DNA of 64,000 nucleotides. It comes from a bacterium (GTDB taxonomy: Bacteria; Babelota; Babeliae; Babelales; UASB340). The notes below the pieces were generated by a model. It searched no databases and was not told the DNA's origin. It was given only the letters and a program-made list of their open reading frames with translations. Below are positions 5,650-16,663 of the stretch, piece by piece; positions within the stretch are counted from its first letter, which is position 1, and every line of letters begins with the position of its first letter. The DNA lies in the NCBI GenBank assembly GCA_030629005.1, contig DAOVPV010000005.1, positions 462 to 64,461 of the forward strand, written 5' to 3'. The position numbers were made by a program, and so were the translations under genes.

Positions 5650-7068
5650 ATGAAAAAAATTAATCTATTTTTATTAACAATTATATTTTTTAATAATATT
5701 TTTTGTTCAAATGTTATTCCAGGAAGTGATCTTTACCCAAAAGAGATTGAATACGTAGAAAATAGAACTCCATTTGTTAACGCTGCTATAAAACTTATAG
5801 CAAATCAAAATTTAGAAACAGAAGAAGTCGAAGATATGGAAATAACAACTTTTCCAAGAATATCTCTATGTTTTAGTGGTGGTAGCTATAGATCTATGAT
5901 AGCAAGTCTTGGCTTTATGGCAGGGGCTGAACAAAATAATTTACTACATGCTGCAACATATATGTCCGCTCTTTCGGGCTCTTGCTGGTTATTAATACCA
6001 TTATTAAACATGAACTGTGAAACTGTTTTTTATAAAAGAATATTAGAAAAAAAAGTAAATAAAAATTTCTTTGATAAAGAAACTTTAAACATAGATAGTA
6101 TTAAAAGCTTTCTTTCAGAGACTGGTCAAAATAAATTAATTGACTTTTGGAGTGCATCTTTGGCTCATCATCTTTTAGGAGACATTGCACCTAATCTAAC
6201 CTTTGAAAAAATAAGAAAAAATCTAAAAACTTTAAACCAATATCCATTTCCAATATTTAATTGCGTTATTGCAAACTCAAAAGACCCTCAAGATGATTTA
6301 CCTTATAATTTTTTAGAAATAACACCATACACAACATATTCTAAAGTTCTTGATAGTACTATAAAAACCAAATACTTAGGCAACGTCTTTAAAAATGGAA
6401 ACCAAAAAACTTATAACCCAGAACTACCTGAAAGTTTTTTTATGGGATTTTTAGGAAGCCCATTTTGTTTATCTGGCGGAGATCTTTTAAATTTTTTATT
6501 ACTAGAGCTTGGTGAATTTTGGCACATAGATGACTACAGATATTTAAATTGGTTCGAACAAAAATTCTATAATTTAAAATTATATAAACACAGGATTTGT
6601 CCTGCAAAAATTCCTAATTACTCTTTAGGCTTAAAACAAAGCAAACTTAGACAAACAAAAAATCTAGAACTAGTTGATGGTGGATTTTGTTTTAATCTAC
6701 CAGCAGAACCATTATTCAGAAGAAATACCGATATTATAATTTTTTTTGATGCTTCTGTAGATGCAACAACACCAAATTATCCAGAACTACAACTTGTCGC
6801 CAATTATGCAAAAGAACATAATATTACATTTCCAAACATAAAAACACCATACCAAGAATCTGAAAACTTAAAAATATTTTTTGACCCTGAAAATCCAGAT
6901 AGTCCAATCATAATTTATTTTACTAATCCAATAACAAAGCCAACATTAAAACTTAGATATGATCCTAAAGAATTTAGGACTCTTTATGATGCAACAGAAC
7001 AATTGGTTTTAGAAAATACTCAAAACATTGCCAAAGCCATTAGTTGGAAAATTGCTCAATTAAATTAA
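5650..7068 (+). CDS. Secreted cytosolic-phospholipase-A2-type (PLA2_B / lysophospholipase catalytic domain) lipase
   Basis: 472 aa; N-terminal leader; 'CFSGGSYRS' (GGGxR-like oxyanion motif), 'ALSGSCW' (GxSGS nucleophile), 'LVDGGFCFNLP' (catalytic Asp region); GAAGGA RBS upstream. Confidence 0.75.
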   Translation: MKKINLFLLTIIFFNNIFCSNVIPGSDLYPKEIEYVENRTPFVNAAIKLIANQNLETEEVEDMEITTFPRISLCFSGGSYRSMIASLGFMAGAEQNNLLHAATYMSALSGSCWLLIPLLNMNCETVFYKRILEKKVNKNFFDKETLNIDSIKSFLSETGQNKLIDFWSASLAHHLLGDIAPNLTFEKIRKNLKTLNQYPFPIFNCVIANSKDPQDDLPYNFLEITPYTTYSKVLDSTIKTKYLGNVFKNGNQKTYNPELPESFFMGFLGSPFCLSGGDLLNFLLLELGEFWHIDDYRYLNWFEQKFYNLKLYKHRICPAKIPNYSLGLKQSKLRQTKNLELVDGGFCFNLPAEPLFRRNTDIIIFFDASVDATTPNYPELQLVANYAKEHNITFPNIKTPYQESENLKIFFDPENPDSPIIIYFTNPITKPTLKLRYDPKEFRTLYDATEQLVLENTQNIAKAISWKIAQLN

Positions 7069-13296: not shown

Positions 13297-13740
13297 TTAA
13301 TTATCAACTTCAATACTTAAATTCTCTTCATCCTTAATTAAAATTTTTGCTAATAAAACTTGATCCTCTTCACTTAGTTCATCCTTTAAAAGGATATCAT
13401 TAAGATAGATAGGAACACCATCAACGTAAATTGGTTCTTTTAATTTTTTCATTGTATATTTTTCATAAACATACAAAGCAACACGCATAAAAATCAATGT
13501 CACTAAAGATCCAACAAAGAAAAAGTTAACCCCCCTATCAAATATTTTACATGCCCTATTAAAAGAATCGTTCCTCATTTGCCATTTAAAAGCCCTAATA
13601 TCATCATCTGTTAAGCCTCTAGTAAAAGACTCTGTCCCACGAATTGACACTCTTCTCTGTTTTGAATAAGAGGCATTAATAACAAAAAAACATAATATAA
13701 ATGTACTTAATAAAAAACGTAAACTCTTTATAGAAACCAT
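13297..13740 (-). CDS. Small leader-bearing membrane protein; its leader resembles that of the upstream Hint protein
   Basis: 147 aa; 'MVSIKSLRFLLSTFILCFFVINAS' compared with 'MVSTKDLCFFILLSLLCVVNLDA' of ORF 15221-16663; one internal TM helix. Confidence 0.55.
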   Translation of the reverse strand: MVSIKSLRFLLSTFILCFFVINASYSKQRRVSIRGTESFTRGLTDDDIRAFKWQMRNDSFNRACKIFDRGVNFFFVGSLVTLIFMRVALYVYEKYTMKKLKEPIYVDGVPIYLNDILLKDELSEEDQVLLAKILIKDEENLSIEVDN

Positions 13741-13773: not shown

Positions 13774-14181
13774 CTAAATCAATTTTACAACTTTAGGATC
13801 ATCATCAGATATAACATCCAAAACAAATTCACTACAAATAAAGCAATAATGCGTTGGCTCAAGATTATCTGACCAACCATAGGATTGCGCACTAAGAAAT
13901 GATATATAATTTGAATCTAATACTTTAAAAAACGTCCAGTCACCGTAAAATCCTTTTCCATAACAATCGTGAAGATCAACAGCTAGCTTTTGTGCAAAGC
14001 TTTCATCTGTGGACTTATATGATAATACATTTGAATCAAATAAAATCTGGACTTTATTATCATTTTCCTTAGGACCAGATAAAATAATCTTTAAACCATC
14101 AAAATTATCTTCTATTGACTCAATGTAATACTTACCACCTAAATTCTTAATAGGTTCCCATTTAATAAATTTTTCTTTCAT
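13774..14181 (-). CDS. Small acidic cytoplasmic protein; candidate immunity protein for the upstream Hint-toxin
   Basis: 135 aa, no leader or TM; starts 17 nt downstream of the toxin-like gene on the same strand. Confidence 0.45.
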   Translation of the reverse strand: MKEKFIKWEPIKNLGGKYYIESIEDNFDGLKIILSGPKENDNKVQILFDSNVLSYKSTDESFAQKLAVDLHDCYGKGFYGDWTFFKVLDSNYISFLSAQSYGWSDNLEPTHYCFICSEFVLDVISDDDPKVVKLI

Positions 14182-14198: not shown

Positions 14199-15224
14199 TT
14201 AATCATTGTATCTAATTTTTAATCTTCTACCATTTTTCTTAATGATTTCTAGTGTAACTCTCTCATCATTACTTTTTGTTCTTACATCAACCTTCCGTCC
14301 ATCTGGAAGTTTACCAGCTTTACCATTAGGAATGGTATGCACATCTGTAACTCCAAGTTTATCAAAATCCTTTTGAGCTTGATCCCATCCTCCATTCTTT
14401 TCTTTTTGAGTTGTTTTTCCTTTAGTTTTATTACCAGGCGTTGCATCTTTTAAAACATCCTTAATTTTATTATCGGCTTCTTCCCTTTTCCTTATCCTTT
14501 CACGCTTTCTCCCCCGCCGTGCTTTTCTAAAACCACTACTAAAAGGAGTTTGTTTTATTATATCCTCTAACTCTTTTACAATTCCAGTTGAACCAGGAAA
14601 GATCAATTCGGTAATAACAACAGCTCCAACAACAGCACCCACCTTAAGTGCTTCTACAATAATTGGAGCCTCAACTAAGGCATACAAACAAACTGACATT
14701 GTCGCAGTAGCGGCAAAATTATGGACCAAAATAGGATCACCACGAGAATTTAAAATAAAAAAGATATTTGCACCATCAATAGAAATATCATATATATCAA
14801 CAGGCTCCGGTATTTCATAAATATAAACATCCGTTACATAAAATTCATCCAATCCTGGAGAATATAATCTATCACCAATTTTTAAGTCCTTAGCTTCAAC
14901 AAATCTTAAAACCTCTCGATTATATATTTTTTGCTCTAAGCCTACTTTTAAAAAACCAACATTTGTATCAATTCTAACAAGTTTTTTTGTTCTTTTTTTC
15001 TTTATCTTTTTTACAAGAGAAGCATCAACTTCTATTCTATTCTCATAAAAATTATAAATTAAAAGCCCATCTCCTTTTTCTAAATCTTTTACTTTTTTTA
15101 TATCAGGATAATCACTACAATCACTAGTTAAAACAATGGTATCAGCCATTAAGCCAAAAATATTTTTCGGTACAAAAAACAACAGTAATAATAAAATAAA
15201 TTTAAAATATCTTTTTAACATCAA
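14199..15224 (-). CDS. Sec-leader + Hint (intein-like, terminal HN) + hydrophobic segment + basic tract + small C-terminal payload; polymorphic-toxin-like protein B
   Basis: 341 aa; 'MADTIVLTSD...' aligns to the Hint N-terminal block; 'DIYDISIDGANIFFILNSRGDPILVHN' matches intein blocks F/G; then 'FAATATMSVCLYALVEAPIIVEALKVGAVVGAVVI', 'RKARRGRKRERIRKREE' and a ~75-aa tail. Confidence 0.7.
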   Translation of the reverse strand: MMLKRYFKFILLLLLFFVPKNIFGLMADTIVLTSDCSDYPDIKKVKDLEKGDGLLIYNFYENRIEVDASLVKKIKKKRTKKLVRIDTNVGFLKVGLEQKIYNREVLRFVEAKDLKIGDRLYSPGLDEFYVTDVYIYEIPEPVDIYDISIDGANIFFILNSRGDPILVHNFAATATMSVCLYALVEAPIIVEALKVGAVVGAVVITELIFPGSTGIVKELEDIIKQTPFSSGFRKARRGRKRERIRKREEADNKIKDVLKDATPGNKTKGKTTQKEKNGGWDQAQKDFDKLGVTDVHTIPNGKAGKLPDGRKVDVRTKSNDERVTLEIIKKNGRRLKIRYND

Positions 15225-16663
15225 AAATCTCCTTGAAATTCATATCTTGCAACGAAAAGAGGTACAACCGTACCATTTTCATCTCTAACTGGATTACCAT
15301 TTTTATCATGTAAAACATCAATAGCAATATCAGAAATAAGAACAGGATCTTTCCGAGAACTTTTTTTGGCCGAAAACTCTTCTTTTACATCTATACCAGA
15401 AAAATCAATATCTTCATTTTCTTTTAATTCAAAATATTCCACAACCTTCTCAGCTGACAATGAGATTATATTCATTGTTGTTGGTATAACAACTTTATAA
15501 ATAGCACAGCCTTCTCCTATACATCTAATAAATGAAGGAAGTATAAGTTGAAATTTTTCTTCTAAATCTAAATAATCCAAGCGATATTTAATAATATCTT
15601 TAGCCCATTTTAATTTCTCAGAATCCAAGCCCGTACATAGTACTGTTGGAATAAATTGCTTTAATTCATCTTTATTCATGTTACTAATACCCTCATAAAA
15701 AATTTTTGAATTGAACTCAAGGCCATCAGCGTCACCAAAAACCTTATTCAAATGGGACACTTGCCGAATCCCCCCTTCCATTAAACTCTTAAAATTATCC
15801 TCATTCAAAGAAACATGGAAACCTTTTTTCATTTGACCTCTCGATAAAATCTTTTTATACACCGTTTTTACAACAGGTCTTAAATAAATATAACCAGCAG
15901 CTGCTCCACCACCAATAATACCTCCAACAATAGCACCACTCAAAATAGCTTTAGCAGATATCTTTCCCCTTGTATGATTTACAACAGCTTTTATTCCTAC
16001 AATCGCGCCAACACCTGCGCAAATGCCAATAGTCCACAATATAGTAGATGTTGCTATAATGTTATGTGTTAATAAAGAATTCCCAGAAGAATCGACAACA
16101 AAAAAAGTATGTGGCCAAGTTAAAGAAAGATCATATGAATCTATCGATTCTTCTAGCTCAATAGTTTTTACCTTTATTACAGTAACAACATCATTATTTA
16201 AACCGAGAAGTTTATCTCCCTTTTTTAAATCCTTTGCCTTCACCCAAATAACACGTAATAATATTTCCAAAAACTCTCGATTTTTCTCCTTAACATGTTT
16301 TAATAATTTAGGTTTCAACTCTGCAAGAGCATTCCATCTATAAAATCTTTGTTTTTTTCCAATATATAAATAACCTCTTCTACCAGAGGAAGAAACTAAT
16401 TCCAATTTAGTAACTCTATTAACATAAGATGGCATTAATTTTTTTTGAACAACTCTTGCTCTATCTAAAACGCATTGTAAATTATTATCATTATAATTAT
16501 CATTTACAGATAAAAGACTATCTCCAAATTCTAAAGCCTCAACATTAGAAAATGTATAACTACCTGTTCTAACAAGCGTATCTGGCAATAAATTTGCATC
16601 TAAATTAACAACACAAAGAAGACTTAGTAAGATAAAAAAACATAAATCTTTTGTAGAAACCAT
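15221..16663 (-). CDS. Sec-leader + Hint (terminal HN) + Gly-rich TM helices + unrelated ~215-aa C-terminal domain; polymorphic-toxin-like protein A
   Basis: 480 aa; 'LLPDTLVRTGS', 'VKAKDLKKGDKLL' and 'DSYDLSLTWPHTFFVVDSSGNSLLTHN' parallel protein B; C-terminus shows no similarity to B; ATGA overlap with B. Confidence 0.7.
   Translation of the reverse strand: MVSTKDLCFFILLSLLCVVNLDANLLPDTLVRTGSYTFSNVEALEFGDSLLSVNDNYNDNNLQCVLDRARVVQKKLMPSYVNRVTKLELVSSSGRRGYLYIGKKQRFYRWNALAELKPKLLKHVKEKNREFLEILLRVIWVKAKDLKKGDKLLGLNNDVVTVIKVKTIELEESIDSYDLSLTWPHTFFVVDSSGNSLLTHNIIATSTILWTIGICAGVGAIVGIKAVVNHTRGKISAKAILSGAIVGGIIGGGAAAGYIYLRPVVKTVYKKILSRGQMKKGFHVSLNEDNFKSLMEGGIRQVSHLNKVFGDADGLEFNSKIFYEGISNMNKDELKQFIPTVLCTGLDSEKLKWAKDIIKYRLDYLDLEEKFQLILPSFIRCIGEGCAIYKVVIPTTMNIISLSAEKVVEYFELKENEDIDFSGIDVKEEFSAKKSSRKDPVLISDIAIDVLHDKNGNPVRDENGTVVPLFVARYEFQGDF

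Follow-up and report, generated by a model that had tools for sequence, protein, structure and literature searches.

A Hint-linked cassette and its downstream gene in a reduced Babelota genome resemble a polymorphic toxin-immunity pair of an unnamed family

Polymorphic toxins of the PT-HINT type (PMC3482391; PF07591) combine a Sec leader, a Hint domain ending in His-Asn (HN), a variable C-terminal toxin, and a downstream immunity gene, and several paralogous cassettes with swapped payloads can share one genome. We find this arrangement in a 64,000-nucleotide stretch of a Babelota genome (assembly GCA_030629005.1, contig DAOVPV010000005.1, positions 462 to 64,461; hereafter, the window), in which a gene that we call cassette B is followed by a small gene at 13774-14181. 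It is very likely that the two form a polymorphic toxin-immunity pair. The kind of system is already known, while the family to which this pair belongs has no Pfam or NCBIfam name. Cassette B differs from described PT-HINT toxins in that its Hint domain directly follows the leader, without an RHS or filament part, in the putative hydrophobic hairpin between Hint and toxin, in toxin and immunity domains that have no Pfam model, and in its setting in a reduced genome of 1 Mb.

Two further described systems bear on the locus as a whole. Among MafB toxins (N-terminal domain PF06255), a 266-residue MafB-like protein of Neisseria viridiae (L026) carries the same toxin domain and is followed by a 134-residue gene of the same immunity family; its N-terminal delivery domain is a different one, and its toxin domain is 53% identical. 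Odyssella, an endosymbiont of amoebae and thus also a host-dependent bacterium, has polymorphic toxins with adjacent immunity genes, which were read as conflict among the bacteria within a shared host (Zhang et al. 2012). According to that work, an adjacent immunity gene marks an endosymbiont toxin as a weapon of bacterial conflict, and host-directed toxins lack one (Zhang et al. 2012, PMC3482391). The Odyssella toxins have Otu and URI domains and come from another phylum, whereas the trait described here occurs in ~12% of the genomes of the window's phylum. The pair and the parts of cassette B are as follows.

14199-15224, minus strand: cassette B, 341 residues from a TTG start, or 340 from the ATG at 15221.
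15153-15224, minus strand: predicted Sec signal peptide, residues 1-24 (...FFVPKNIFG/LMAD), with a hydropathy peak over residues 10-23.
14718-15152, minus strand: Hint (PT-HINT-like) domain, residues 25-169, matching PF07591 just below its cut-off and ending in ILVHN.
14574-14717, minus strand: hydrophobic Gly/Ala/Val-rich segment, residues 170-217, with a Kyte-Doolittle mean of >1.4 over residues ~174-207.
14478-14528, minus strand: Arg-rich tract RKARRGRKRERIRKREE, residues 233-249, in the variable linker before the toxin domain.
14202-14477, minus strand: toxin domain, residues 250-341 (stop codon at 14199-14201), delimited by homologues, conservation, and an AlphaFold2 (AF2) model.
13774-14181, minus strand: candidate immunity gene, 135 residues, without a leader, net charge -8.

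The toxin domain comprises 92 residues, numbered 1-92 below for cassette B residues 250-341, and includes the 28 residues ADNKIKDVLKDATPGNKTKGKTTQKEKN between the basic tract and GGWDQ, which hold a conserved helix and a PG.xTKG..Q.EK motif. The toxin-immunity family is widespread, spanning at least eight phyla, with no name in curated libraries and no solved relative: an exhaustive phmmer search with residues 250-341 matched 749 representative clusters at an E value of ≤1e-3 and 259 at ≤1e-10. In 146 of 152 retrieved proteins, which range from 80 to 3279 residues, the match ends no more than 8 residues from the C terminus. The N-terminal partners identified with Pfam in 84 full-length homologues were PT-HINT (14 proteins), RHS (8), PT-VENN (4), SpvB/TcdB (3), MafB (2), PT-TG (2), and haemagglutinin repeats (Fil_haemagg_2; 1), and NCBIfam models detected an Rhs core in four of the eight toxin-domain proteins scanned. 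A genome search with a profile built from 8 close toxin sequences located 41 toxin loci in species genomes of Bacillota, Pseudomonadota, Myxococcota, Bacteroidota, Spirochaetota, Margulisbacteria, and Planctomycetia. One C-terminal domain is therefore carried by several trafficking or pre-toxin N termini, the hallmark of a polymorphic toxin. An earlier reading of the span 14199-14582 (residues 215-341 and the stop codon; here, the original prediction) had proposed such a C-terminal module, and the position and diverse scaffolds of the domain bear it out. The peptide on which that reading was based, GGWDQAQKDFDKLGV...KIRYND, is present at residues 278-341 (14202-14393), but its estimate of ~64-75 residues for the module was too short.

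The gene at 13774-14181 starts 17 nt after the cassette B stop codon, and the association recurs across the family. Of 39 genome loci, 35 have an open reading frame (ORF) of at least 70 residues that begins only a few bases from the toxin stop, and 34 of these ORFs encode 100-174 residues. A jackhmmer search seeded with the 13774-14181 protein recovered 34 of the 35 downstream ORFs, from seven phyla, along with a copy on contig C12 of the same genome. In the window's own phylum, an immunity homologue directly follows the toxin in eight of the nine loci fetched, that is, in all eight that could be assessed, as the ninth ends at a contig edge. The ORFs behind two homologues without a Hint domain (P0003 and P0004) are 23-27% identical to the 13774-14181 protein. 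The immunity gene is thus found directly downstream and co-varies with the toxin domain, as is characteristic of polymorphic toxins, and the 34 of 39 loci with a homologue immediately behind the toxin support the proposed partnership with cassette B. Four of the eight phylum loci (L049, L054, L056, and L057) carry two or three tandem immunity genes behind a single toxin gene, suggesting protection against the toxin variants of relatives. Across the family, immunity proteins have a median net charge of -10 and toxin domains one of +3; a basic toxin with an acidic immunity protein is the usual picture for toxins directed at nucleic acids. An AF2 model of the 13774-14181 protein (predicted local distance difference test [pLDDT] of 89) gave weak Foldseek similarity only to 5v77, a Neisseria protein of unknown function, and to PIM7 (8owu). 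Pfam and NCBIfam scans of the immunity proteins returned nothing relevant, and the Neisseria immunity homologue had no sequence match in the PDB.

Cassette B probably starts at the ATG at 15221; an AAGGAG (15229-15234) lies 7 nt upstream of this ATG, and the start agrees with the 340 residues of the sequence database entry (P0002). Its Hint domain is paralogous to that of the neighboring cassette A and those of three cassettes on contig C14 (jackhmmer E values of 1e-64 to 3e-72), and cassette A matches the PT-HINT model PF07591 with 28.7 bits, above the cut-off of 27.7. The C-terminal His-Asn is present in cassette B (ILVHN, residues 165-169), and an N-terminal Cys/Ser nucleophile is absent. 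Directly after the HN comes the hydrophobic segment, as it does in phylum relatives (L051 and L054), and an equivalent segment also precedes the toxin in P0003 and P0004. Residues 170-217 probably form a hairpin that inserts into membranes and accompanies the toxin. A 32-residue linker, which contains the basic tract, joins this segment to the toxin domain.

Conservation was scored column by column across 147 homologues. The toxin-domain columns conserved at ≥90% are G15, T18, G20, G29, A34, F38, G55, L57, D59, G60, V65, R66, S69, T75, E77, R89, and Y90, with K87 and D37 at 88%; R66 (99%), S69 (100%), T75 (99%), and E77 (98%) are among them. Cassette B retains every column at ≥90%, and T267, D286, and D308 in its own numbering are also conserved. 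The pattern G..DF..L....G.LPDGR.V.VR..S....TLEI......KIRY, originally recognized by eye, coincides with columns that are 88-100% conserved in these homologues. The AF2 model of the domain, built from a 58-sequence alignment, has a pLDDT of 95.1 and a predicted TM-score of 0.85. Its elements are helix 2-9, strand 23-28, helix 30-40, strands 44-49, 52-56, and 62-66, loop 67-73, and strands 74-79 and 85-91. The conserved Arg closes strand 3 and the conserved Thr and Glu open strand 4, around a 7-residue loop with the invariant Ser, while the last strand carries the Lys, Arg, and Tyr. Judging by how residues alternate along the last three strands, we infer that N64/R66, T75/E77, and K87/R89 share one sheet face near S69. 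In cassette B numbering, R315, S318, T324, E326, K336, R338, and Y339 are candidate active-site residues.

This arrangement can be compared with the BECR-like superfamily, which is described as a helix and strands, with an optional strand before the helix, and active-site residues flanking the strand 3-4 loop; its families are said to use His recurrently, and many RelE-like RNases act without His, through Arg/Lys and a C-terminal Tyr (bioRxiv 10.64898/2026.08.28.747851). A tested BECR-like member, SRLase1, is an RNase neutralized by its immunity protein and is found on the same kinds of scaffold (bioRxiv 10.64898/2026.09.18.752725). As in the BECR-like core, the AF2 model has the helix ahead of strand 3, an extended loop between strands 3 and 4, and strand 5 at the C-terminal end. 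It also resembles BECR-like domains and SRLase1 (10.64898/2026.08.28.747851, 10.64898/2026.09.18.752725) in the extra strand 5, in the conserved polar residues that flank a longer loop, where strand 3 ends and strand 4 begins, in having no Foldseek link to classical RNases, and in its association with PT-HINT, PT-VENN, SpvB, FG-GAP, and haemagglutinin scaffolds and a small immunity gene. It differs from SRLase1 in that the signature Arg70/Asp72/His85/His97 is absent from the toxin conservation table and strands 1 and 2 are well formed, and the catalytic His that recurs in the superfamily is missing. The canonical BECR mRNA interferases RelE and YoeB are likewise small, basic alpha+beta domains with no obligatory His, an inner-strand Arg, and a C-terminal end with Arg/Tyr (YoeB ...RYHY; cassette B ...KIRY), but their element order is different and they are toxin-antitoxin proteins rather than secreted polymorphic toxins. 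An hmmscan search gave no match to RelE/YoeB (PF06769) either, and Ntox47 (PF15540) was not found in the 408 genomes (8 + 400) searched for the BECR-like profile comparison. Setting the BECR-like topology and the His-free RelE-like precedent against the lack of a signature or profile link, we put the chances of RNase chemistry at about even. The suggested resemblance of the segment to nuclease or RNase modules stands in part: it is a toxin module, and nuclease activity is plausible from topology and the pattern of conserved residues, with no named family or structure matching.

The explanation that we favor, and consider fairly probable taken whole, is an exported, Hint-released RNase toxin with an immunity protein and a bacterial target. 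The Sec leader would export the 341-residue pre-protein, and the Hint domain would then cleave itself by Asn cyclization at VHN (residue 169), releasing a fragment made up of the hydrophobic hairpin, the variable charged linker, and the 92-residue toxin. Inside a bacterial cytoplasm, the toxin would act as a small metal-independent BECR or BECR-like RNase, using the seven candidate residues (R315 through Y339), a cluster on the exposed side of the three final strands. The acidic 135-residue protein would bind and block the toxin, and the producer would retain this protein, without a leader, because the toxin acts in the bacterial cytoplasm. Its main use is likely to be against other bacteria, such as co-infecting relatives, rather than against the host.

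Several observations weigh against this explanation. The match of cassette B to PF07591 (E value of 3.1e-5, 24.7 bits) falls below the gathering cut-off of 27.7. No Pfam or NCBIfam model covers the toxin domain, whether the whole protein, its C-terminal pieces, or 58 homologues were scanned (at E values up to 10), and a PDB sequence search with the domain found no match. Foldseek returned nothing at an E value of ≤0.001 for the toxin model in the PDB or BFVD (best PDB match, E value of 0.027 and TM-score of 0.42), so the structural comparison suggested with the original prediction produced no significant toxin or nuclease fold neighbor. An hhalign comparison of the toxin profile with a YoeB alignment from nine genomes gave a probability of 0.5%, equal to that of the negative control. 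No His column is conserved among the 147 toxin homologues, the fit to the BECR-like fold was judged on element order alone, without strand pairing or three-dimensional packing, and the case for RNase activity is built from topology and conserved residues. The explanation accounts neither for the passage of a Sec-exported fragment across the outer membrane and into another cell nor for an Arg-rich tract that is exceptional in the genome.

Other candidates for the identity of the toxin domain were rejected. Designer PPR/TPR repeats, which appeared in the PDB profile search, are an artefact of many sub-threshold matches to one helix. Of the toxins described by Nachmias et al., PT1 and PT7 were excluded, as their PDB entries fail to match, and PT6, which acts in the periplasm, is linked to DUF4157 and has no immunity protein, was excluded as well.

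Cassette A, cassette B, and the 135- and 147-residue ORFs are four successive genes on the minus strand. The two neighbors of the pair are as follows.

15221-16663, minus strand: cassette A, 480 residues, a signal peptide-Hint-glycine-zipper paralogue of cassette B with an unrelated 225-residue payload.
13297-13740, minus strand: small membrane ORF with a leader, 147 residues.

The TGA stop of cassette A and the ATG of cassette B share one base, which suggests translational coupling. The cassette A payload has no family match, and cassette A is not directly followed by an immunity gene of its own. The ORF at 13297-13740 could be the immunity gene of cassette A or a cassette remnant, in which case the cassette B pair may have inserted between them. 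The counts from a promoter and terminator scan were no higher than expected by chance. The G+C content is ~29% throughout the window, and the composition of the locus is unremarkable, equal to that of the genome (1.05 Mb in 15 contigs, 95% complete). Elsewhere in the window, on the plus strand at 5650-7068, a 472-residue protein matches the eukaryote-type lysophospholipase/cPLA2 catalytic domain PF01735 (E value of 5.5e-21) and is a possible host-directed lipase.

Within the phylum, the toxin profile matches 31 of 261 genomes and 23 of 145 genera, all in genomes of 0.5-1.7 Mb and a single order, and one genome has five copies. In two genomes of the window's genus, the copies are divergent and lie at a different locus, and a third genome lacks the toxin; accessory toxin cassettes show this kind of patchiness. 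In a toxin-domain tree, the phylum copies cluster beyond chance without forming one clade, and its 92 columns resolve their origins poorly. The window's genome holds two further loci of this kind.

C14:63745-68091: Hint locus with three tandem signal peptide-Hint cassettes of 389, 359, and 349 residues with different payloads.
C12:382-597: decayed toxin copy in a 113-residue frame, within C12:1-729 (locus L007 1-717, minus strand).

The middle C14 cassette has lost the Hint HN, and in the last one the linker is acidic and the C-terminal domain rich in His; two paralogous ORFs of 173 and 174 residues that follow the cassettes are candidate immunity genes. In the C12 frame, the leader and first Hint residues (LLPETLVEVG) are fused directly to a truncated toxin ending in KIRN, followed by an immunity homologue that runs off the contig end. 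A same-genus locus (L072; G165:C1:78000-90000) has two tandem Hint cassettes with a divergent toxin subtype (...VIDRNFSS.RSGNKPTLEIQ...IKIRYN), each with an immunity gene, plus at least two orphan immunity paralogues and a 171-residue ORF related to the 173- and 174-residue ORFs of C14; it differs from the window's locus and adjoins a topoisomerase I gene. The toxin domain of L027, from a 704-kb contig labeled 'uncultured Pseudomonadota bacterium' (CAYNSS010000001.1), is identical to that of L052 (G072) of the window's order, and this identity indicates that the public label is probably wrong or that one genome is present twice.

The original prediction had read the Arg-rich tract as a eukaryotic nuclear localization signal and the toxin as aimed at the host. 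In such an account, the tract would serve as a nuclear or nucleolar signal or a cell-penetrating peptide in a protist host, the toxin would attack the RNA or DNA of the host, and the role of the immunity protein would be limited to protecting the producer before export; we consider this unlikely. The tract itself was found as quoted, at residues 233-249, and is statistically exceptional: in a scan of all open frames of at least 80 residues in the 1.05-Mb genome (~408,000 residues), it is the sole 17-residue window with at least 11 Lys/Arg and at least 5 Arg, and its GC-rich Arg codons are unusual at 29% GC. The Lys-rich linkers of two same-genus cassettes and the small genome also speak for a host effector, and an RNase against a conserved RNA could harm eukaryotes as well. 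Yet the tract is not conserved. At its position, P0003 has 'SEESEE' and P0004 has 'KKEAEAQAKKKESEQ', and in most phylum relatives that share the order of Hint domain, hydrophobic segment, linker, and toxin, the linker is strongly acidic (e.g., 'DDDNDDETSGS' and 'DSDDASKPEDDSDESDPSDEE'). With linkers acidic or Lys-rich across relatives, the linker of cassette B seems free to drift in charge, and we propose that the tract is one lineage's variant of a linker with no compositional constraint rather than a conserved targeting signal; as a nuclear localization signal, a membrane-flanking or cell-penetrating segment, or an RNA-binding arm, it is not supported by conservation. An effector bearing such a signal should keep it in its orthologues and have no immunity gene, and here the linkers vary and the gene is present. 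The locus is not linked to any host-injection apparatus, and the family occurs in free-living bacteria on antibacterial delivery scaffolds. Its immunity gene is near constant and often in arrays, while host-directed endosymbiont toxins typically lack one (PMC3482391). By the argument of Zhang et al. (2012), the adjacent gene for a leaderless acidic immunity protein makes this a toxin of bacterial conflict, and the proposal of a host rather than a bacterial target is not upheld. A more elaborate scenario, in which the domain is a His-free BECR-like branch or a separate fold, acting on a new RNA target, and the Arg-rich tract of one copy redirects it at a protist host, with immunity kept for self-protection, seems to us improbable.

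The pair could also be genuine with another chemistry, the toxin being a DNase, a modifier of nucleotides or proteins, or a protein that inhibits some cytoplasmic target stoichiometrically. We regard this as possible, though not the likelier case. It is favored by the lack of any fold or profile link to an RNase, by the absence of a conserved His, and by the weak best neighbors of the immunity model, 5v77 and PIM7, the latter being the immunity protein of a DNase toxin. However, 92 residues without a conserved metal-binding Asp/His cluster are small for most DNases or transferases, PT7 (8owu) is not among the Foldseek matches of the toxin model, and the topology, with Arg, Glu, Lys, and Tyr on an exposed sheet face, is typical of metal-independent RNases, of which the RelE type also does without His. 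It is very unlikely that cassette B is instead a decaying relic without present function, left over from toxin cassettes that a now shrinking genome had acquired horizontally. The clearly degraded copy at C12:382-597 and the C14 cassette without a Hint HN show that such decay occurs in this genome, but the 341-residue frame of cassette B is intact, with a Shine-Dalgarno sequence and coupling to cassette A, and its conserved residues and immunity gene are all kept. Its base composition is that of the genome, and full-length copies without internal stops are present in the 31 phylum genomes. The exported RNase toxin with a cognate immunity protein remains the explanation that we prefer.

Within the literature collection searched, we found no publication on polymorphic toxins in the window's phylum and no record of assays on the MafB C-terminal class with the cassette B toxin domain. 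For the reading of such loci, a dense Arg/Lys run beside a toxin domain is insufficient evidence of host-nuclear targeting. As an unannotated family with a very confident model, this one is an easy target for defining the chemistry of a small RNase or another toxin. Genomes of ~1 Mb in a host-dependent phylum still invest in toxin-immunity cassettes, and their presence in 31 of 261 genomes, with up to five copies and arrays of immunity genes, argues for competition among bacteria that share a host cell.

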